Shown here: positions 14,839 to 54,886 of the stretch, piece after piece
How positions within the stretch are numbered: position 1 is the first letter of the stretch
How the letters are laid out: the number at the start of each line of letters is the position of its first letter
Source of the DNA: a virus
Taxonomy: Duplodnaviria; Caudoviricetes
Length of the DNA: 64,000 bases
Direction: 5' to 3' (one strand)
IMG/VR virus record: IMGVR_UViG_3300037504_000149
Notes under the pieces: model-generated
The model's input: the letters and a program-made list of their open reading frames with translations, nothing else
What the model was told of the DNA's origin: nothing
Database searches by the model: none
Program-made: the position numbers and the translations under genes

Positions 14839-15076
14839 GTTATTACGCCCCGCTGGAATCCAGCGGGGCTTTTCTATACCTTGTATATTCGATTATTCTT
14901 ATATCCTAATATATTCCCCTTAGTCTCCCCCTTCAAACATAATGCTAACATAAAACTTCCCTGAAGTCAAGACCTATTTTATTCCATTTTATACTTGACA
15001 ATCTAGGAATCCATATGGTATACTACTTTCAGAAGATGAAAACGCCCCGGAGGGGCAAAACTAGGGAGGGGAAAGA

Positions 15077-15328
15077 ATGGAGTATTTATTGCGTCTGACC
15101 CGCGCCCGATATAATGATATACCGATAGATAACATCGGGCAAGCTACGCGAATAAAGGTCAAGAGTATACAAGCCGCTAAGATAGCGGCAACAAGATGGG
15201 CGGAGCAAGTGGCAACACCAAACAAGCCCTATTGTGTCGTTATCTACACAATCGAGGGTACACCTATAATAAGAAAACACAGCTTTACTAAGAAATGGGC
15301 GAAAGCGGGAGAATTCTACTGTACCTAG
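15077..15328 (+). CDS. cassette cargo, basic hypothetical protein
   Basis: Own promoter (14995), RBS and terminator. Confidence 0.75.
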   Translation: MEYLLRLTRARYNDIPIDNIGQATRIKVKSIQAAKIAATRWAEQVATPNKPYCVVIYTIEGTPIIRKHSFTKKWAKAGEFYCT

Positions 15329-15563
15329 CATTTACCCCCGCTGGATTCCAGCGGGGCTTTTCTTTATCCTGGATATTCGATTATTCTTATATCCTAATAT
15401 ATTCCCCTTACTCTCCCCTTCAAACATAATGCTAACATAAAACTTCCCTGAAGTCAAGACCTATTTTATTCCATTTTATACTTGACACTCTAGGAACTAG
15501 TATGGTATACTACCTTCAGAAGATGAAAAGCCCGCATAGCGGGCATAACAGGAAGGGAAACGG

Positions 15564-15896
15564 ATGATTTACGAAGTTATTACTCGCGATGAACTCTATC
15601 ACCGTCTGAAGGGGTATAACGACGTATTCTCGTATGAGGGGGCTCGGATAATATACGATTATATTACCGAACTCGGCGATACGGAGCTAGACGTTCCCGA
15701 CATTCACGGCGGGTTTACGGAGTATTCCGATGCTGAGGAAGCGGCAGAGGACATTCTCCCCCCTGATGAGGTCGAGGAAATGCGGAAAGAATTCGCGGAA
15801 TTCCCCGGCCTTGATGATGAATGCTGGAAGGCGCTGGAGCGGGCCGGTGAAACAGTGCTGGGCTCGGCGTCCGGGCCTGTCATTATCGCGGAATAG
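15564..15896 (+). CDS. cassette cargo, acidic phage hypothetical protein
   Basis: FSYEG..I.DY..E....ELDV motif familiar from phage proteins; own promoter (15482). Confidence 0.75.
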   Translation: MIYEVITRDELYHRLKGYNDVFSYEGARIIYDYITELGDTELDVPDIHGGFTEYSDAEEAAEDILPPDEVEEMRKEFAEFPGLDDECWKALERAGETVLGSASGPVIIAE

Positions 15897-16130
15897 TTTT
15901 ATCGCCCCGCTGGTATTCCAGCGGGGCTTTTCTATACCTTGTATATTCGATTATTCTTATATATATTCCCCTTACACTTCCCCTTCAAACATAATGCTAA
16001 CATAAAAGTTCCCTGAAGTCAATACCTATTTTATTTAATTTTACACTTGACAATCATTTAATCCGTATGATATAATACCTTTACAAGATTGAAACGCCCC
16101 TACAGGGGCATAACAGGAAAGGGAAGGAAT

Positions 16131-16568
16131 ATGATTTACACCAATCTTGATGAAGCACGCGCCGCGAAGGCGGCGAGCGTAGCAAAGGCGCGAGAGCTGG
16201 AGTCCCGCGCTATCGAAGGTGAGGGGCCTACTTCCACCGAAGCCGAAGAAGTCAGGCATGAACGGTGGATCAAGGAAAACACCCTGGTTGTTACCAGGCA
16301 CGCAGGCCTGGTCGACTACATCAAAGAAGAGTTCATTTATCCCGCGTACCTGGCATCAGACGTGGTATTCTCTCACGTTGAGCAAAAGGACGTGGAGGGG
16401 AAGCACGTGGTTGGCATTTTGCCGCTCCACCTGGCCGCATTGGCAGATAAGGTGACGGTCATCCCCCTGAACCTGACCCCGGCGGATCGAGGTCAGGAAC
16501 TTTCCGCCGAACGGGTGCGGGAAGTGGCCGGTGACCCGGTAACCTACCGGGTCGAGCAGGTGAATTAG
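16131..16568 (+). CDS. Csx16-like protein (putative cyclic oligoadenylate ring nuclease)
   Basis: TLVVTRHAG...HV...VVGILPLHLAA...LNLTPADRGQELSAE..R...YRVE matches the Csx16 (VVA1548) pattern. Confidence 0.72.
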   Translation: MIYTNLDEARAAKAASVAKARELESRAIEGEGPTSTEAEEVRHERWIKENTLVVTRHAGLVDYIKEEFIYPAYLASDVVFSHVEQKDVEGKHVVGILPLHLAALADKVTVIPLNLTPADRGQELSAERVREVAGDPVTYRVEQVN

Positions 16569-16903
16569 CTCTCACTGCCCCGCTGGATTCCAGCGGGGCT
16601 TTTCTATACCTTGTATATTCGATTATTCTTATATCCTATTATATATATATATTACCCTAGTCTCCCCCTTCAAACATAATGCTAACATAAAACTTCCCTG
16701 AAGTCAAGAACTATTTTAATGTATCTAAAACAAGGCAGCACAAGGGTATATTTTAGTCGCCCGTAGAAGTGATATAACGGGCCGTAGATGGCCGTAAAGG
16801 GTGGCAGAGTGGTATAGTATACTTATCTATTGAACGGCCTTAAAATCGCCCTACGGGCATTATATGGAATATCAGGAAAGTTTAATATAGATAAAGTTTT
16901 CTC

Positions 16904-17140
16904 TTGACAGGGAGCAAAGGTTATGATATACTTCCCCCGTAAGATTGAGAAATAGATACCTGAAACGCCCCCCAGAGGGGGCATAAAGGAAAGGGGAATA
17001 AATGAAGGGTTGACAGCGATGGGGAAGTATGATATACTTCCCCCGTAAGATTGAAGATGTAGTAAACGCCCCTACGGGGCACAAAGGAAAGGGGCTAAAA
17101 TTAGGGGTTGACAAGGGTGGGGAAGTATGATATAATCCCC
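16904..17140 (+). promoter_or_regulatory. three stacked promoter/hairpin/RBS heads, the first two without cargo
   Basis: TTGACA at 16904, 17009 and 17108; the first head's RBS leads only to ATG AAG GGT TGA. Confidence 0.8.
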
Positions 17141-17569
17141 TTGATGAGCGTTACCTATAACACAGTATCATTTATTCACTAGAGTTAACAAGGGAGGGAG
17201 GCGCAGGATGAAACACTATCAGCGTAACATCCTGCTGGAACCCGGTTAAATCATCGGGGCGGAAAGTAAGTCGGCCCCGCCCCGGCTTTCCCGGGCCTTA
17301 ACATGGGATACACCGTAGACCTATTGTGATCAACGGTAAATCCGTTGTGACGCTCCCCCGGTCCCTAAACTATGGGGACCGGGGATTTTAGTATAGTTAG
17401 TTTATATTATAAGACTGCCGGACTGCCCACAAAAGAGTTTAACATAAAAGTTACCTGAAGTCAATACCTATTTTATTTAATTTTACGCTTGACATTCTAG
17501 GAACTAGTATGATATAATAGCTTTACAAGATTAAAACGCCCCGGAACGGGGCATAACAGGGAGGGAACG

Positions 17570-17782
17570 GTGTTTCACTTAAAATTCTACGACGGGACGA
17601 CCGGGAGTGCCGGTTGTTACGGGAGTTTTGATACGCTCGCCGACGCTATGGCTGAGTGTGATACCGTCCCCGGTTGCTCCGGGGAGTCAGGGTATGAGTC
17701 ATCCTCGTTGTATATCGAGGATGACACAGGAGAAGTTGTCGCATCCCTAGGCGCATATTGCGCCGGTTGGGTTGTGGGCTAG
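17570..17782 (+). CDS. cassette cargo, acidic hypothetical protein
   Basis: Promoter 17489, AGGAGG RBS, GTG start and terminator. Confidence 0.7.
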   Translation: MFHLKFYDGTTGSAGCYGSFDTLADAMAECDTVPGCSGESGYESSSLYIEDDTGEVVASLGAYCAGWVVG

Positions 17783-17967
17783 ATTTACGGCCCCGCTGAT
17801 ATTCTCAGCGGGGCTTTTCTTTTACCTTGTATATTCGATTATTCTTATATATATCCCCTTACTCTCCCCCTTCAAACATAATGATAACATAAAACTTTCC
17901 TGAAGTCAACCCCTAAATTTCCCTATTAAATCCTTGACATCTATCTGCTGTTTTGATACAATACTCG

Positions 17968-18140
17968 TCGAGGTGGCAGCCGCAGTAGGCGCAGGGAAGT
18001 TGAGACCCCTAGACGTAGGACTCCGGTCCCTGTATCCCCGCCGATCACGGGGTGCATGCGGGTGTCGGGATTGTCCGGGCAATCCCCAATCCCGCCCACC
18101 TTACATGAAACGGCCCCCGCTGGATTCCAGCGGGGCTTTT
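17968..18140 (+). ncRNA. candidate small structured RNA carried as cassette cargo
   Basis: TTGACA-N17-TACAAT at 17934, no RBS or credible ORF, GC stems (GCAGGGA/TCCCTGT, CCCCG/CGGGG, CGGGATTG/CAATCCCG), then the module terminator. Confidence 0.5.
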
Positions 18141-18348
18141 CTTTTACCTTGTATATTCGATTATTCTTATATCCTAATATATTCCCCTTAGTCTCCCCCT
18201 TCAAACATAATGCTAACATAAAAGTTACCTGAAGTCAATACCTATTTTATTCAATTTTATACTTGACAAGCTATAAACTAGTATGATATACTATCCCCAC
18301 AAGATTAGAAACGCCCCCGGAGGGGGCATAACAAAGGAAGGGGAAGAA

Positions 18349-18861
18349 ATGGGCTGGGATGGTAGGTATATGGATAACACTGTGAAAGCCCGTCAACGAG
18401 TGATGATGGAGACTGTCGGACTGATAGACTTGTCGGTCCGGGGCAATGAAGGGTACGCTGCAGTGAAACATCCCGATATGGAGGCCGTGTTTTGTATGAT
18501 CTTCATTTTCCGGTATTCTGAAGGGGAATTGTGTACAAAGACCTGTACGGAGCTTGACGGCCCGTTTTGTTGGAATTGCCCGCAACGTATTATGAAACAG
18601 CTCACTGCGCCGCTGAACGAGCGGGCGGCGGATTGGCGCGATGCTTGTCGGCTCGCTGCGAAGTTGCGCAAAGCGCGTTATGTTTATCTGGAGCGGTCGC
18701 CGCATGGCACTGACATACGCTTAGTGGAAAAGGTGGCGAATGCTCGGAGTGTTTACCGTGAGATGTATACCGGTGAACTATGGCGGCTGCGCGTTAACAC
18801 TATGATGCACTACGGCGCTCGTCCAGTGGATAAGGACGAAGCCGAGGCGATGTTACGTTAG
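18349..18861 (+). CDS. DUF6927-like mobile-element protein
   Basis: E.DGPFCWNCPQRIMKQLT...AADWRDAC motif. Confidence 0.6.
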   Translation: MGWDGRYMDNTVKARQRVMMETVGLIDLSVRGNEGYAAVKHPDMEAVFCMIFIFRYSEGELCTKTCTELDGPFCWNCPQRIMKQLTAPLNERAADWRDACRLAAKLRKARYVYLERSPHGTDIRLVEKVANARSVYREMYTGELWRLRVNTMMHYGARPVDKDEAEAMLR

Positions 18862-19088
18862 ATTTACCGCCCCGCTGGAATCCAGCGGGGCTTTTCTTTA
18901 TCCTTTATATTCAATTATTCTTATATATATATTCCCCTTAGTCTTCCCCTTCAAACATAATGCTAACATAAAACTTCCCTGAAGTCAATACCTATTTTAT
19001 CCAATTTTACACTTGACAAGCTATAAACTAGTATGATATAATAGCTTTACAAGATTGATAGCAGTTAACATTAAAAGGGGAGGGCTCC

Positions 19089-19958
19089 ATGCGTGTTGAT
19101 AAGAAAAAGGAAAAGGTACTCACACACTTAGAGGATATTTTATCGGCGCTGAAGAATGACCCGGCGGCGCTGAAGCGCTTGTCGTGGATTAAACCGTGGA
19201 GTAACCCACCCCGTAACTTGGCCGGGCGTCAATATAACGGTGGTAATGTACATATTCTGAACTTTGCCTCCGTCGTTAGTAGTTATAAGCATAATAGGTG
19301 GGGAACGTTCAATCAATATAAGAAGTATGGGGCCAGCATTATTAAGGGCTCCAGTGCGACGCCTATCTATTACTATAATGTAAAGAAATACACTAAAGAA
19401 GATGAGAATGGAGAGGAAAAGGAATATACTTATTATGTGTTTAAGTATTTTAATCTTTTCAATATCGCACAAACGACATTGGAGATTGAGCGGCTCCCCG
19501 GCGTCGAGTATAAAGAAGTAGAATATACCACACCGGAACGAATCCGGAGGGGATATTGTGACAATGGCGGCCCGGAGTATCAGGAATCCGGTGACCGTGC
19601 CTTTTATCGGCCCGGAGGGGATTTAGTCTGCTTGCCGCCCCGCGAAACATTCCATTCATCAGCGGAGTATGCCAGTACGCTATATCATGAACTGGTGCAT
19701 AGCACCGGGCATGAAAAGCGGCTGGACCGGGGATTTAGCTTGTCTCGGGGCGGGGAAGGGTACGCCCTAGAGGAACTGGTCGCAGAGACTGGAGCGCTAA
19801 TCCTTTGTGACCGGAGCGGTATTAACCCGGACGTGAATAACTTCAAGGCGTATATTGCTAGCTGGCTTCAGGCGGTAAAATCTGACCAGCGTTACAAAAC
19901 TTTCTCCGCATTGTCACAAGCGGAGAAGGCCGTTGACTACATTCTAGGGGAAAGGTAG
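19089..19958 (+). CDS. ardC: ArdC-like antirestriction/ssDNA-binding protein with zincin domain
   Basis: WIKPW, RQYNGGN, WGTFNQ, FNLFNIAQ, AFYRP, HELVHSTGH..RLDR, YALEELVAE, AYIASW. Confidence 0.9.
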   Translation: MRVDKKKEKVLTHLEDILSALKNDPAALKRLSWIKPWSNPPRNLAGRQYNGGNVHILNFASVVSSYKHNRWGTFNQYKKYGASIIKGSSATPIYYYNVKKYTKEDENGEEKEYTYYVFKYFNLFNIAQTTLEIERLPGVEYKEVEYTTPERIRRGYCDNGGPEYQESGDRAFYRPGGDLVCLPPRETFHSSAEYASTLYHELVHSTGHEKRLDRGFSLSRGGEGYALEELVAETGALILCDRSGINPDVNNFKAYIASWLQAVKSDQRYKTFSALSQAEKAVDYILGER

Positions 19959-31544: not shown

Positions 31545-31929
31545 GGGGCTGATAAGGGTTCGACGTGCGAGTAAAAGTGAGGTAGCATCCCGTGGTTGGT
31601 CTCTAGGCCACGTAAAAAAGAGACCAAACAACAACAGCCGAAAATGCTGTTCCCTTGGCTGCTTAAAAAGCCGCTCCTCTATGGAGCTAGGCTCGTAGCC
31701 CGCCCCCGGAAAGGTTTCTCTGCACCTGACTGGATAAGGCGTCAAAAAGCAGGGGTCCGACTTGGAGTTACCTAATCGCTCCTAAAAGGACTACAGAGTA
31801 ATTAGGTAGGGTGCGCGAGACTGTGCCGTATCAGCCGGACCGCACCGACACGACATGATACGGCTATGGATGTAGATGCCGAAGCGGCACTTGACACGGA
31901 CGCGGGTTCGATTCCCGCCAGCTCCACCA
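31545..31929 (+). ncRNA. ssrA: tmRNA; tag (A)AENAVPLAA*
   Basis: 5' GGGGCTG pairs with 3' CAGCTCC-ACCA including a G3:U pair; T-arm GGGTTCGATTCCC; tag ORF 31637-31666; promoter TTGACA-N17-TATCAT at 31501. Confidence 0.95.
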
Positions 31930-37182: not shown

Positions 37183-37398
37183 ATGAGACACCACTTCAAA
37201 CAACCCCAGGATAAGGATGGTAAACCTATCCACATTCAGCAGAGAGTTGCAGTAGACTCTACTCCTGAAGACGTTTGGAAAGGTGGTTTCTCAGGCACGG
37301 TCATTAGAATTATCAGTACCTTTAAGGTTACGGTATCTGATTTGAAGGGTCATGCCTTTGATGTACCTGCACACAAGACAAAAGTTTTGGAAGGTTAA
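37183..37398 (+). CDS. small SH3-like barrel protein
   Basis: DKDGKPIHI...FSGTV...V.DLKGHAFDV. Confidence 0.55.
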   Translation: MRHHFKQPQDKDGKPIHIQQRVAVDSTPEDVWKGGFSGTVIRIISTFKVTVSDLKGHAFDVPAHKTKVLEG

Positions 37399-37399
37399 A

Positions 37400-38140
37400 A
37401 TGAATGATGCTCTAGGTGATCGTATGAAGAAGTATGAGAATACTACAAGGTATTACCTACCTCCCCGTACACCTATCATTATTAGAGTAGATGGTAAAGC
37501 CTTTCACACTTATACTAAAAATTGTATAGAACCATTCAGTAATGTTCTAATAAACATAATGAATGAAGTTGGGTTACATCTTTGTGAGAATATCCAGGGT
37601 GCTGAACTAGCATATATTCAAAGTGATGAAATTTCTATATTAGTTCATTACTATAAAAAGTATACTTCATCTGCATGGTTCGATAACAACTTGCAGAAGC
37701 TGGTAAGTGTTTCAGCTAGTCTAGCTACAGAAGCATTCATTAACAGTTTGATGCGGCGTCCCATCGCTTGGCAGTCACAGTTTGGTGGTAAAACACCTAA
37801 CTTTGATAGCCGAGCTTTTTGTATACCAGTAGCGGACGTATGCAATTACTTTATCTGGAGGCAGAAAGATTGGGAACGTAATAGTTTGCAACTACTAGCA
37901 AGAAGTTTATACTCTCATAACGAATTACACGCTAAGAAGCGTGATGAATTGCACGATATGTGTATAGCTAAAGGTAATAACTGGAACCAGCTACCAGGGT
38001 ATTATAAACGAGGTAGATGTGTCAAGTTACTTTGTAATACTGATACTCCTGTTACTAAACGAGAGTGGGTTGTAGAAACTCCTCCCATATTTACTAAAGA
38101 TAGAGATTACGTTGAAGAACATCTGTTTGTTGAACAATGA
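37400..38140 (+). CDS. thg1: tRNA(His) guanylyltransferase Thg1-like protein
   Basis: LGDRMKKYE, IRVDGKAFH, YIQSDEIS, FDSR, NYFIWRQ.D..RNS. Confidence 0.92.
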   Translation: MNDALGDRMKKYENTTRYYLPPRTPIIIRVDGKAFHTYTKNCIEPFSNVLINIMNEVGLHLCENIQGAELAYIQSDEISILVHYYKKYTSSAWFDNNLQKLVSVSASLATEAFINSLMRRPIAWQSQFGGKTPNFDSRAFCIPVADVCNYFIWRQKDWERNSLQLLARSLYSHNELHAKKRDELHDMCIAKGNNWNQLPGYYKRGRCVKLLCNTDTPVTKREWVVETPPIFTKDRDYVEEHLFVEQ

Positions 38141-40461: not shown

Positions 40462-41163
40462 ATGATAGCATTTCTAGGTGATATACATGGGTCATTTGAC
40501 GCACTCTATTTATTTGAAGAACTCCTCCGATCTGTACTAGGTGATGAATTGGAGGAGATTGTTGTATTGGGAGATGTGGGTATCTGGCCCGAAACAATAA
40601 TCCATATTCCCGATTTCAAATCTAGGATTTCTTTCATCCGAGGGAATCATGAAAGTTATCCTCTATTAGAGGAGTGGGATAAATTAGATTTACCTCTCCA
40701 TTATTGGAAGGATGGCGAAACTCGCAATCTATATAATTATCGGTTTACAGCATTAGGCGGGGCTTATTCTATCGATCGTCATCATCGTAAATTAAACGGA
40801 ACTGACTGTGCGGCGTGGTATAGAGAAGAAATACCGAATCGTGAAATGGCAGAAAAAGTTGGTACAGAGGACGCTACCGATGTACTACTAACCCATGCAC
40901 TCCCTCCTGAGCTTGCTAAGCGTGTTTTCTCGCGTATTAAGATAAATAGTGATGAGAATGGGGAGTTGTCCCCTATTCTGTATGGTACGATTCCGTTTAT
41001 CTTCTGTGGTCATTATCACATCTACAGGGATACGCGAGTACAGATAAGTGAGGACTACTCGCTCAACATCATCGCGTTACCTAGCTGGGCTCCTATGACA
41101 GGACGACAGTTTATCCTACTTGATGAGGACGGCTTTTATGTTGTTGATCCAGATAAATCATAA
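40462..41163 (+). CDS. calcineurin-like metallophosphoesterase
   Basis: GDIHG, LGDVG, RGNHE, LTH and GHYH. Confidence 0.9.
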   Translation: MIAFLGDIHGSFDALYLFEELLRSVLGDELEEIVVLGDVGIWPETIIHIPDFKSRISFIRGNHESYPLLEEWDKLDLPLHYWKDGETRNLYNYRFTALGGAYSIDRHHRKLNGTDCAAWYREEIPNREMAEKVGTEDATDVLLTHALPPELAKRVFSRIKINSDENGELSPILYGTIPFIFCGHYHIYRDTRVQISEDYSLNIIALPSWAPMTGRQFILLDEDGFYVVDPDKS

Positions 41164-43637: not shown

Positions 43638-44876
43638 ATGGATCTAGTTGAAAAAATTAGGCTGTTCCCTACCGAGGAACAAAACAAGCAACTCCGAGAG
43701 TTGGCTGCGTTCTGTCGTGACGCGGCAAACTACATCTCGGAGTTTATCTATACACATCGTTTGCGCTCCAAGGGTGTAGGGACGCTCTACAAACCGGATT
43801 GGGAAACGCGAGCTGCAAAAGATGATCCAGACGCCGTTTCACTTTATAAGGTATTGTGCAGTGCTTTCGATTTTAGTGGCAAGAAGTCTCTAGCCACCGC
43901 GATTATTCAAAGGGTAAAATCATCCTATAAGTCCACCAACGCACGAAACATCACACAAGGGGATGCCTTTTATCGGGCAGGTAAGGCGAAGTATCGTCAA
44001 TTGAAGAAAGATGGAATAAAAGGGGAAACACTTAAGGCTGCTGCTAAGCTTACTCAAGAAGAAAAGAACGAGATAGCTGAACGGTATGGCATGACAAAGC
44101 CGCTCAGCTTCAATCCCTTTATTCCTACCCTAAAACAGAATACTAAATGGAAGGAAAACACAGTCAGTTTCTTCGGTATCTCAAGTATACCTTTTGCGTC
44201 TCGACTGGAAAACATAGAGTCTCGTGACGCGATTGTTAAGCTCAACAAAAACAACAAGTGGCTGCTACACCTTCCCGTAGAGACCTCCGAAGAGGAAGTT
44301 TACGAACCTGCTGGTTGGTTGGGAGTAGATGTCGGACTGGCAAACCTGGCTGTCACCTCTGAGGGCACGGTCTATTATGGCGGTGAGAACCGTCGCCGTG
44401 GTGAAACACGGTTCAAGCAACGTCAGCGGATGCAGAAGAAGGGTACTAAATCCGCGAAGCGTAGACTGAAAGCTCTTTCCGAGAAAGAAACAAGGTGGCG
44501 AAAAAATCTCTGCCACGAGATCAGCACCGCTATCGTCCGACGTGCGAAAGAGCTTCGCTATGGTGTAGCGGTAGAAACGCTGAAAAACATTCGGCGAAAC
44601 GTGAGACAATCGAGGAAGCTGAATCGTCAGCTTCACGGTAGTTTTCCTTTTGGTATGCTTCTTTCCATGCTAGAATATAAAGCAGAGAAAGAGGGTGTAC
44701 CATTCCAGAAAGTGGATCCTAAAAATACCTCCAGGACGTGTCCAAAGTGTGAATATGTAGCAGAGAAAAACAGAATTAGCCGTACACACTTTAAATGTGT
44801 GGAATGCGGCTACAAAAACTACGCAGACCATGTGGCGGCAACTAACATTTCTCGGATAGCAGAAACCGGGATATAA
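43638..44876 (+). CDS. CRISPR-associated TnpB/Cas12f-like RNA-guided nuclease
   Basis: RuvC-I GVDVG, RuvC-II VAVETL, zinc finger CPKC...CVEC, RuvC-III ADHVAATNI; adjacent to the array; no tnpA. Confidence 0.9.
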   Translation: MDLVEKIRLFPTEEQNKQLRELAAFCRDAANYISEFIYTHRLRSKGVGTLYKPDWETRAAKDDPDAVSLYKVLCSAFDFSGKKSLATAIIQRVKSSYKSTNARNITQGDAFYRAGKAKYRQLKKDGIKGETLKAAAKLTQEEKNEIAERYGMTKPLSFNPFIPTLKQNTKWKENTVSFFGISSIPFASRLENIESRDAIVKLNKNNKWLLHLPVETSEEEVYEPAGWLGVDVGLANLAVTSEGTVYYGGENRRRGETRFKQRQRMQKKGTKSAKRRLKALSEKETRWRKNLCHEISTAIVRRAKELRYGVAVETLKNIRRNVRQSRKLNRQLHGSFPFGMLLSMLEYKAEKEGVPFQKVDPKNTSRTCPKCEYVAEKNRISRTHFKCVECGYKNYADHVAATNISRIAETGI

Positions 44877-45009
44877 TGTTGGTGGCGTCGGGGCGTAGGG
44901 AGACGCCCATACAGCGGAGACGAGATCCGAACTGATGGCGTAGCACAGACGATAGGATCACTTGAGTCTACTGCTGAGCACAGCACTACTTTTCGAGAGC
45001 CTTCTGGTG

Positions 45010-45166
45010 ACATAGAAGGCCGGGAGGTTCTCGAAAAGGTATATTGTTGATAGTAGGATAGTTACGGCAAGGGTGCGTTTTCTAGTACATTTCTCGGGGC
45101 CTGAAAGTGGGGGTTCTCGAAAAGGTGAAAATAAACCTAGTAATATCAACAAGTTAAAAGACTGGG
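45010..45166 (+). promoter_or_regulatory. CRISPR leader
   Basis: GGTTCTCGAAAAGGT twice (45026, 45112); IHF consensus TATCAACAAGTTA at 45144-45156. Confidence 0.75.
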
Positions 45167-45983
45167 GTTTTAACGACTTCTGCGGTGTGCTTGTGCATCT
45201 CCCTGGTAGCTTCTTGGGGTTTTTGTATCGTTTCGGAAGTTTTAACGACTTCTGCGGTGTGCTTGTGCATCTCCCTACAAAATACATCATCGGTTGGCCT
45301 AAGTTGTCCTTCTGTTTTAACGACTTCTGCGGTGTGCTTGTGCATCTCCCTATATAGAAATCATGAACTCAGGAGGTTCACTATGAGTTTTAACGACTTC
45401 TGCGGTGTGCTTGTGCATCTCCCATACTGCATCGACCAGACACGCCTACCCTATCATTAGTTTTAACGACTTCTGCGGTGTGCTTGTGCATCTCCCTATT
45501 GGTAGTGAGACAGTGGACAAGGCCATAAATGGCCGTTTTAACGACTTCTGCGGTGTGCTTGTGCATCTCCCATACCATTGAGCCTGATCTGGTAGTGCTA
45601 TGCCTCATTGTTTTAACGACTTCTGCGGTGTGCTTGTGCATCTCCCAGCATAGTAAACCTCCTGAGTTCATGATTTCTATATAGTTTTAACGACTTCTGC
45701 GGTGTGTTCGTGCATCTCCCCTGCTGCTACATCGGTCCTAACACAGATCAAAGGGAGTTTTAACGACTTCTGCGGTGTGTTCGTGCATCTCCCCTGCTGC
45801 TACATCGGTCCTAACACAGATCAAAGGGAGTTTTAACGACTTCTGCGGTGTGTTCGTGCATCTTCCTATAGTAGAGAGTAGAAAGTTACATACATGGTCT
45901 CGGGTTTTAACGACTTCTGTGGTGTGTTTGTGCATCTCCCACCCTTCGCCATACACCTTCCGCAAAGTGTTTGTGTATCTCCC
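45167..45983 (+). CRISPR. CRISPR array: 11 repeats of 37 bp, 10 spacers (35-38 bp), degenerate terminal repeat
   Basis: GTTTTAACGACTTCTGCGGTGTGCTTGTGCATCTCCC at 45167, 45239, 45314, 45387, 45460, 45535, 45610, 45684, 45757, 45830, 45904; remnant ends at 45983. Confidence 0.98.
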
Positions 45984-46011: not shown

Positions 46012-46905
46012 ATGTCTCTTCGACGATTAGGTATCTACCATAGAGTAGATAATGATGGTTTTGCTTGTGCTGCTATTCTGCGGCATAGGTTTCCCTCCAT
46101 CGATCTTTTTGGGATGAATTATGGGGATGAAGAACCCCATTTCATTGAAGATTATGATCAGGTTTACATAGCTGATTTTTCTCTCCCCCCCAAGAGGATG
46201 CAGCATCTAAATTCATTAACTGAGATGCATTGGATCGATCATCATCAAACAGCTATAAATGATTGCAAAGATCTAGATTTACTAGGTTTACGTAAAATAG
46301 GAGAAGGTGCTTGTTCTCTCCTTTGGCAGTATTTATATCCTCACTACCCTGTACCTGAAGCTATACAGCTCATCTCAGACTATGATGTGTGGAATTTATC
46401 TGATACGGTTATACACTTTCAGTATGGTTTACGTCTGATGGGGGATATACGCTTAGCTGATGAAATTCCTGAGTTCGAAGGAACAGCTACTAAGGAGTGG
46501 CTAGATTACCAAAACCTCTCGTACTTTTGGGAAAACCTTCTCAGAGGCTCTCAGAGCCTCATAGACAGCTTAAAAGACGAAGGCAGTGTCGTATACCGTT
46601 ATGTACGCTCACAGCTTTCTAAAGCCATTAAACGGGGCGTAGCGATGTCCTTTCACGGACACGACGCCCTTTTTGTTATGACACCTGACAACCCCTCCCT
46701 TATGGCAGAACTGTGGAAAGATTATGATGTTTGCATCAAAGCTTTCTATGACCTTTCTGCTTCAAAGTGGAGGCACACCTTATTCTCCCACCCCGGCGGT
46801 CCTAATGTAGGTAAGCTAGCTAAGAAATACGGTGGGGGCGGGCACGAGCATTGTGCTGGGTTTATGTGGGATCACTTGGCGCTACATAAGAAACTAGCTG
46901 AGTAA
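46012..46905 (+). CDS. DHH/DHHA1 family phosphoesterase (NrnB-like)
   Basis: YH..D.DG, IADFS, WIDHH and GGGGH..CAGF. Confidence 0.9.
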   Translation: MSLRRLGIYHRVDNDGFACAAILRHRFPSIDLFGMNYGDEEPHFIEDYDQVYIADFSLPPKRMQHLNSLTEMHWIDHHQTAINDCKDLDLLGLRKIGEGACSLLWQYLYPHYPVPEAIQLISDYDVWNLSDTVIHFQYGLRLMGDIRLADEIPEFEGTATKEWLDYQNLSYFWENLLRGSQSLIDSLKDEGSVVYRYVRSQLSKAIKRGVAMSFHGHDALFVMTPDNPSLMAELWKDYDVCIKAFYDLSASKWRHTLFSHPGGPNVGKLAKKYGGGGHEHCAGFMWDHLALHKKLAE

Positions 46906-54299: not shown

Positions 54300-54382
54300 A
54301 CATCACAAAAGGAGATAACGATGAAGGCAGGTAAAGAATACAAGAAGTGGGGATGGAGCTTTGTAGAAAACAAAAGGGACAT

Positions 54383-54886
54383 ATGATTACACACACAACC
54401 GGGGATATTCTCCAGGATGAAGCCGAGGCCATTATCAACACCGTCAACTGTGTCGGGGTGATGGGGCGCGGTCTTGCGCTGCAATTTAAGAAGGCTTTTC
54501 CATTAAACTTCAAAGCCTATGCTATCGCCTGCAAGCAAGACAAGGTGCAGCCGGGTAGGATGTTCGTCTATCACAACAAGGGCCTTTCTAGTCCGCGATA
54601 CATTATCAACTTCCCGACTAAACGCCACTGGCGGGACAAGAGCCTCATGGAGGATGTTGAAGCGGGGCTGGAGGATCTGGTCAGAGTTATCCGTGAGAAG
54701 GATATCAAGTCCATCGCGCTTCCAGCGCTTGGCTGCGGTCTTGGGGGATTGGATTGGAGCGAGGTGAAGGCCCATATCGAACAGGCGCTTGCACCTTTGG
54801 CTGACATAGAAATCAACGTATACGAACCAAAGGGCGCTCCCGCTTCGGAGAAGATGGTGCGTAACCGCGAAGTGCCAATGCCGTAG
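54383..54886 (+). CDS. DarG-like macrodomain (ADP-ribosyl glycohydrolase), N-terminal domain only
   Basis: GDIL..EAEAIINTVNCVGVMGRGLALQFK, INFPTKRHW, PALGCGLGGLDW. Confidence 0.9.
   Translation: MITHTTGDILQDEAEAIINTVNCVGVMGRGLALQFKKAFPLNFKAYAIACKQDKVQPGRMFVYHNKGLSSPRYIINFPTKRHWRDKSLMEDVEAGLEDLVRVIREKDIKSIALPALGCGLGGLDWSEVKAHIEQALAPLADIEINVYEPKGAPASEKMVRNREVPMP

Follow-up and report, generated by a model that had tools for sequence, protein, structure and literature searches.

The csx16 gene and its cassette

The DNA described here, 64,000 nt in all and referred to as 'the window', comes from a virus of the Caudoviricetes (IMG/VR record IMGVR_UViG_3300037504_000149) and is part of a 229,864-bp contig. 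At 16131–16568 it carries a gene for a small protein, P0001, that belongs to the Csx16 family. The gene and the signals that accompany it are these:

16131–16568, + strand: csx16-like gene; ATG at 16131, TAG at 16566–16568; 145 amino acids (aa) plus stop; protein P0001
16047–16076, + strand: sigma-70 consensus promoter of the csx16 cassette; TTGACA, 18 nt, TATAAT, with TG before the -10 hexamer; 12 of 12 positions match
16096–16129, + strand: 5' leader; GCCCC-TACA-GGGGC hairpin at 16096–16109, ATAAC, and a purine-rich Shine-Dalgarno sequence at 16115–16129; other cassettes have leaders that align with it
16577–16606, + strand: intrinsic terminator; GCCCCGCTGG-ATT-CCAGCGGGGC and then a T tract; doubles as the opening element of the module that follows

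The list of open reading frames (ORFs) offers an alternative start for this gene, TTG at 16089, inside the transcribed leader and a few bases past the -10 box. This codon has no ribosome-binding site (RBS), whereas ATG 16131 follows the Shine-Dalgarno sequence and lines up with the starts of neighbouring cassettes; hence we take the ATG to be the start, and the limits assigned to the gene by an earlier, sequence-only reading of this DNA are correct. The strong promoter which that reading saw is real too, a perfect match to the consensus, and the same element recurs across a repeated cassette module. The terminator, a 10-bp GC-rich hairpin at 16577–16599, begins 9 nt past the stop codon. csx16 is, in short, a monocistronic, self-contained cassette, with its own promoter, leader hairpin, RBS and terminator. 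As would be expected of an anti-CRISPR gene, it resides on a mobile element—here a phage-like contig—and has a strong promoter of its own.

Membership of the Csx16 family

Residues 53–141 of P0001 match positions 2–90 of the 91 in Pfam model PF09652 (Cas_VVA1548/Csx16), with an E-value of 8.1e-17; the score, 61.6 bits, is well over the cut-off of 25. With the narrower model of NCBIfam, TIGR02620, the protein scores 23.2 bits, under the cut-off of 46.35, and so P0001 belongs to Csx16 at the level of the Pfam family, not at that of the NCBI hypothetical equivalog. PHROGs holds no significant family for the csx16 protein itself. The three motifs noticed in the sequence-only reading (RH, GxLPxHLAA and RGxELS) are all present, as R56-H57 within VVTRHAG, G95-I-L-P-L-H-L-A-A103 and R120-G-Q-E-L-S125, and all three sit on invariant or near-invariant columns in alignments of 20 and of 149 sequences, and in both clades of the family. 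The polar residues common to both clades—T/S55, R56, H57, H82, R120 and E123—are retained in P0001 without exception, as are the GxLP and RGxEL frames.

Predicted structure

The protein divides into two parts, only the second of which is Csx16:

16131–16280, + strand: N-terminal extension, residues 1–50; predicted helical hairpin (helices 6–28 and 35–49), outside the Csx16 profile
16281–16565, + strand: Csx16 core, residues 51–145; beta-alpha-beta, Rossmann-like; T55-R56-H57, H82, G95-x-L-P98 and R120-G-x-E-L124

An AlphaFold2 model built from a 20-sequence alignment has a mean predicted local distance difference test (pLDDT) score of 83, and of 88–95 over most of the core. Its best match in the ESM Atlas spans residues 48–145, with TM-scores of 0.61 and 0.67 and a root-mean-square deviation (rmsd) of 1.4 Å over 95 residues. 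The matched cluster is named Csx16: 92% of its members carry PF09652, and every member with a recorded taxon is viral. The fold expected of Csx16 is a derived one of the Rossmann/CARF type, with a five-stranded sheet. The comparison with Csx16 by profile and by structure, for which the sequence-only reading had called, thus bears out the assignment to Csx16, since PF09652 is matched end to end and the predicted fold superposes on a Csx16 cluster. Foldseek finds no match at an E-value of 0.001 or better in the PDB or in BFVD.

Modelling also supports the formation of a homodimer. The prediction passed its ipSAE test at 0.58, against 0.00 for the best control; of the solved homo-pairs, 20 of 30 reach that mark, and of the single chains, 1 of 23. 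At least 87% of the contacts are common to the runs, and the pLDDT of the partner is at least 82. The predicted interface comprises residues 96–112 and the C-terminal strand, 136–145, and does not involve the N-terminal hairpin.

The hairpin, rich in alanine and charged residues, belongs to the protein because the gene has no internal in-frame start. The opening residues, MIY, were considered as a possible link to a capsid tag and set aside: three residues are too few, and the MIY of ORF 18283 falls within a promoter. Most viral homologues are 95–130 aa long and have no such extension; where relatives do have one, the extensions, once aligned, prove mutually unrelated and not conserved. A second private feature, a 5-residue insertion at residues 72–76, falls in a low-confidence loop of the model.

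One part of the motif set, xLPLHLAAxxG, approximates the ankyrin consensus, and the whole set might conceivably be an ankyrin-type or chance resemblance. The family profile does match designed ankyrin repeat proteins in the PDB, with E-values down to 8e-11, over just 24–37 residues around the motif; these were the only proteins that the PDB profile search returned, by way of LPLHLAA, and we rejected them as a short-motif artefact. PF09652, by contrast, is covered at 89 of its 91 positions, no ankyrin family is matched even at E-values up to 10, and the model is a beta-alpha-beta structure, without helical repeats, that superposes on predicted Csx16. The Pfam match and the model refute the resemblance, and we accord it virtually no credence. 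A sequence search of the PDB found no solved Csx16 structure.

A mobile-element clade of Csx16

The Csx16 proteins sampled fall into two groups. A hidden Markov model (HMM) built from the 149 nearest representatives of P0001 gives ~70–171 bits to viral and plasmid loci, and 25–59 bits to cellular genes linked to type III systems. With the Pfam model the order is reversed: P0001 scores 62 bits, and cellular Csx16 proteins 83–140. In a maximum-likelihood (ML) tree, from a quick search with 90 core sequences and 108 columns, 18 cellular rows separate from 72 mobile-element rows along a branch of length 2.4, with a Shimodaira–Hasegawa-like approximate likelihood-ratio (SH-aLRT) support of 100. Sampling for this tree was uneven: viral loci were fetched by patterns drawn from near relatives of P0001, and cellular loci came from one phylum. 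P0001 lies within the mobile-element rows, on a terminal branch of 1.58, and its nearest neighbours are IMG/VR contigs and two contigs of metagenome-assembled genomes (MAGs). Certain columns, W63, D77 and D91 for example, are conserved in the cellular clade only, so that the two clades may differ in specificity or rate.

The sequence-only reading took P0001 for a co-opted host enzyme. P0001 sits in the viral and plasmid clade, which an SH-aLRT of 100 sets apart from the cellular, type III-linked Csx16 proteins that were sampled. This placement gives no indication that it was captured recently from a cas locus of a host, and that part of the earlier reading is not supported. The tree and the scores argue, instead, that P0001 is a member of a long-standing Csx16 lineage of mobile elements.

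The closest proteins are 55–60% identical to P0001, across the core only. One is encoded on a 360-kb contig, amid small same-strand ORFs without known function; two others occur on conjugative plasmid-like contigs, adjoining genes for a MobA/MobL relaxase and a TraG-type coupling protein. PLSDB contains only two matches, in Allomeiothermus pMESIL02 and Deinococcus pDEIPR02, both annotated as Csx16; their neighbours are genes for type IV secretion, single-stranded DNA-binding protein (SSB) and small hypothetical proteins, with no cas genes. In IMG/VR, relatives were found on at least 73 viral contigs by a scan with two peptide patterns only, drawn from near relatives of P0001. The neighbourhoods of these viral genes, sampled as 98 ORFs of at least 330 aa from 52 IMG/VR loci, recurrently encode terminases, portal proteins, DnaB, ribonucleotide reductase, DNA polymerase A and methylases, and no Cas10 family is among the top 25 families listed for them in either library.

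A scan of genome contigs with one narrow pattern gave 5 loci and is not a census. Among sampled Pseudomonadota, Csx16 is present in 19 of 401 genomes, with Pfam scores of 83–140 bits, and the 20-kb surroundings of these genes include ORFs that match Cas10/Csm1 (9), Cmr2 (4), Csm5 (6) and Csm6 (2). Cas10/Csm1 is found within 10 kb at 9 or more of the 19 loci, BLAST clustering having placed Cas10-like ORFs in 9 different ones. Seven of 364 Deinococcota genomes have matches, several of which are tandem two-domain ORFs. Tandem Csx16 domains within one ORF of 200–320 aa characterize some plasmid and metagenomic relatives (L122 8992–9777, which is Allomeiothermus pMESIL02; G598:C85; G585:C1; P0021–P0024), and one pMESIL02 copy of Csx16 lies within an ORF of 675 aa. 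The tandem ORFs could be covalently fused pseudo-dimers.

The cassette array

The csx16 cassette is not the only one of its kind. A module of ~200 bp, consisting of a terminator, a conserved block, the consensus promoter, the leader hairpin and the RBS, is present in 7–8 copies between 13999 and 19075 (14.0–19.1 kb), each copy preceding a single, unrelated small cargo gene, and the array contains empty and partial modules as well. Promoter-like sites in this region number 36, against 10.0 ± 3.2 in shuffled sequences. Three slots downstream of csx16, the cargo at 19089–19958 encodes an ArdC-N domain (E 1e-20) and an MPTase-PolyVal domain (E 7e-34), and is annotated in PHROG as an anti-restriction protein; the other small cargoes of the array matched no family. 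The sequence of the module is absent from the IMG/VR contigs searched and from all of the homologue loci fetched. In layout, the array recalls the shuffling of promoter-stem-loop cassettes of the T4 type.

The phage and its CRISPR locus

Nearly all of the ORFs in the window are on one strand, and the 85 that are at least 90 aa long match just 16 Pfam and 16 PHROG families. The matches are typical of large phages—Thg1, DNA methyltransferases, a macro domain, phosphoesterases and a pyrimidine-dimer glycosylase—and are accompanied by a tRNA and a transfer-messenger RNA (tmRNA). No structural hallmark gene is present in the 64-kb window. A large uncultured phage is, judged by its gene content, well supported as the source. 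Megablast of positions 15000–19000 against 50,697 phage records gave no match, tblastn of two large window proteins matched no related phages, and matches to Thg1 are scattered over many unrelated phages.

A CRISPR array of 11 repeats of ~37 nt, with a periodicity of 72–75 nt, lies at 45166–45950, 27–29 kb downstream of csx16. Two adjacent spacers in it are identical (45683–45828). Ahead of the array, at 43638–44876, is a gene for a 412-aa TnpB/Cas12f-like protein with OrfB_IS605 and Cas12f1-like TNB domains; the locus as a whole was delimited at 43638–45983, and the window yielded no cas1, cas2 or cas4. By its sequence this locus is type V-like and TnpB-derived, not type III, and systems of this sort do not use cyclic oligoadenylate (cOA) signalling. 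The locus therefore says nothing about what csx16 does: the distance of 27 kb given in the sequence-only reading stands, but the relevance attached to it does not. The Cas10, RAMP, CARF, SAVED and CD-NTase families are absent from the 85 window ORFs of 90 aa or more, and no type III CRISPR-Cas locus surrounds or adjoins csx16 in the window.

Several other genes of the window deserve mention. Directly downstream of the CRISPR array, at ~46054–46863, is one for a DHH/DHHA1-type phosphoesterase. On the 360-kb contig, which is unrelated to the window, a DHHA1-like gene 3.4 kb away from the csx16 homologue (L001 13711–14535) encodes a homologous protein (24% identity over 280 aa, E 4e-16). A ring nuclease and an enzyme for breaking down short linear oligoadenylates could be regular partners, although there are just two cases. 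The tmRNA (tag ENAVPLAA, 31545–31929), the Thg1-type tRNA-His guanylyltransferase (37352–38140) and a cREC_REC cyclic-phosphate-processing domain, also encoded in the window, look together like a set of genes for RNA repair or translation rescue. Further candidates for counter-defence, or for the degradation of nucleotide signals, are a stand-alone protein with a macro domain (Pfam Macro, E 6e-26; 54347–54883) and a calcineurin-like metallophosphoesterase (40462–41160). Between 52500 and 57450, finally, a run of ORFs with short tandem repeats of the GCTGCT type encodes Ala/Trp/Gly-rich repeat proteins that matched no family.

What might P0001 do?

Viral ring nucleases are the main known escape route from type III CRISPR immunity that signals through cOA. 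To our knowledge, AcrIII-1 and AcrIII-2 are the only viral enzymes of this kind to have been validated so far.

The connection between Csx16 and ring-nuclease function, drawn in the sequence-only reading, is now an experimental one. At a 100-fold excess of substrate, purified Csx16 degrades cyclic tetra-adenylate (cA4) completely, to linear products, but does not so degrade cyclic tri-adenylate (cA3) or cyclic hexa-adenylate (cA6) (Hoikkala et al. 2025, PMC12409355). Csx16 occurs in 68 type III loci, always alongside cA4-dependent effectors, and in 2 of 28,114 phage genomes, compared with 36 that have AcrIII-1 (PMC12409355). The idea that phage Csx16 is an anti-CRISPR has thus already appeared in print as an inference, with two phage copies reported (PMC12409355), and later papers from the same laboratory state that ring nucleases encoded by viruses and plasmids can serve as anti-CRISPRs. 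Because Csx16 is a confirmed cA4 ring nuclease, and is already present in two cultured phage genomes, an anti-CRISPR role for P0001 is plausible, but not new in kind.

The reading that we favour, with rather better than even confidence, is that P0001 is a dimeric cA4 ring nuclease used by a large phage to blunt type III CRISPR signalling. csx16 would be transcribed alone, from its host-type sigma-70 consensus promoter and probably early in infection. The host, which presumably relies on type III immunity that signals by cA4, would make this molecule when its Cas10 complex detects phage RNA; homodimers of P0001 would bind the cA4 and cut it to linear products, so that effectors dependent on cA4 would stay inactive or be turned off again. 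Such a course of events would amount to the AcrIII-1 strategy, carried out by a different protein family. The ~50-aa N-terminal helical hairpin would be an accessory part. Ring-nuclease activity is presumed here both for the mobile-element clade as a whole and for this copy.

Conceivably, P0001 binds a cyclic oligonucleotide but acts unlike canonical Csx16: as a sponge or slow nuclease, as Csx15 does, or with its specificity shifted toward cA3, cA6 or molecules of the kind used by cyclic-oligonucleotide-based antiphage signalling systems (CBASS). A deep split divides the mobile-element clade from the type III-linked one, scores across it are low in both directions, and some columns are conserved on one side only. 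According to later papers, the related family Csx15 acts chiefly as a cA4 sponge, and Crn4 is broad in its specificity. We nonetheless regard a shift of activity as unlikely, for P0001 keeps every polar residue that the two clades share, which argues for the same chemistry in both, and the only Csx16 to have been assayed is strictly cA4-specific (PMC12409355).

The phage might, alternatively, use P0001 for purposes of its own, in nucleotide or RNA-end metabolism together with its RNA-repair-type genes, or to control phage-borne signalling encoded elsewhere in the 230-kb genome. The products of ring nucleases bear 2',3'-cyclic phosphates (PMC12409355); the window encodes Thg1, tmRNA, a cREC_REC domain, and DHH and metallophosphoesterases; and our inspection covered 64 kb of the 230-kb contig. 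Set against this are the lack of Cas10, CARF, SAVED and CD-NTase among the window ORFs surveyed, the position of csx16, which forms a cassette by itself within an accessory array that varies, rather than part of an operon with RNA-repair-type genes, and the occurrence of relatives in unrelated phages and in the transfer regions of plasmids, which fits anti-defence better than it does phage-specific housekeeping. We judge an internal role to be very unlikely. Slimmer still, in our view, are the prospects that csx16 is an inert or decaying passenger acquired by cassette shuffling. An array with empty and partial modules and unrelated cargoes would be the place to find one, and the long terminal branch of P0001 and the private insertion at 72–76 would be in keeping with decay; but the reading frame, all of the family-conserved residues, the promoter, the RBS and the terminator are intact, and the fold and the dimer are predicted with confidence.

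P0001 might, more broadly, represent a large, so far undescribed Csx16-like lineage, tandem-domain fusions included, confined to mobile elements—phages and conjugative plasmids—that diverged anciently from the CRISPR-linked lineage and was perhaps tuned for offence. We entertain this with considerable doubt. Tuning of this kind may involve faster turnover, an altered or broader range of cyclic nucleotides or, by way of variable N-terminal additions such as the helical hairpin of P0001, docking to host defence proteins or delivery in the virion. Were it so, anti-CRISPRs of the Csx16 type would be far commoner than surveys of cultured phages, centred on AcrIII-1, suggest.

In this locus there is a phage copy of csx16 that is clean, complete and under a strong promoter, and that lends itself to direct tests. 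Its value is that of a test case, and of a pointer to an abundant mobile-element clade of Csx16, rather than of a new mechanism. Our survey suggests that the form of Csx16 found on mobile elements is a distinct clade, frequent in viromes (at least 73 IMG/VR contigs) and present on conjugative plasmids too; the frequency with which type III signalling is thwarted in nature would then have to be estimated anew.

Comparison with known systems

P0001 resembles canonical Csx16 (PF09652, TIGR02620) in its core of ~90 aa, its T/S-R-H, H, GxLP and RGxEL motifs, its predicted fold and its predicted homodimer. It differs in having no type III cas genes as neighbours, in belonging to the viral and plasmid clade, in scoring under the NCBIfam equivalog cut-off, and in possessing the ~50-aa N-terminal helical hairpin and the 5-residue loop insertion. 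The sole cultured-phage relative found, gp42 of Bacillus phage Shbh1 (YP_009275213.1), has a C-terminal Csx16 domain that is 31% identical to residues 52–145. Like P0001, it has an N-terminal extension and is encoded among small same-strand genes; unlike P0001, it comes from a Herelleviridae phage of Bacillus, its extension, at ~90 aa, is an unrelated one, and the similarity between the two proteins is distant.

Other cellular families of ring nucleases have likewise been proposed as anti-CRISPRs when found on mobile elements: Crn4b on phages and plasmids, and Csx20 on phages (PMC12830947, PMC12409355). Crn4 is unlike Csx16 in that its fold is unrelated and its substrate range broad, whereas the Csx16 assayed is specific for cA4.

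The closest functional parallel is AcrIII-1/Crn2 (DUF1874), which Athukoralage and colleagues are said to have described in 2020 as a viral cA4 ring nuclease that acts as an anti-CRISPR. The sequence-only reading considered P0001 to be distinct from it, and by sequence that is so: Pfam reports no match between DUF1874 and P0001 even at E-values up to 10. The best structural matches of P0001, weak ones, are AFV3-109 (2j6c) and a cA4-bound Crn2 domain (8y7g), and the invariant H57 would fall near the catalytic histidine that is mutated in 8y7g, a position estimated from the aligned ranges rather than from a residue alignment. AcrIII-1/Crn2 is also what P0001 is proposed to be in its job—a small, dimeric viral enzyme that destroys cA4.
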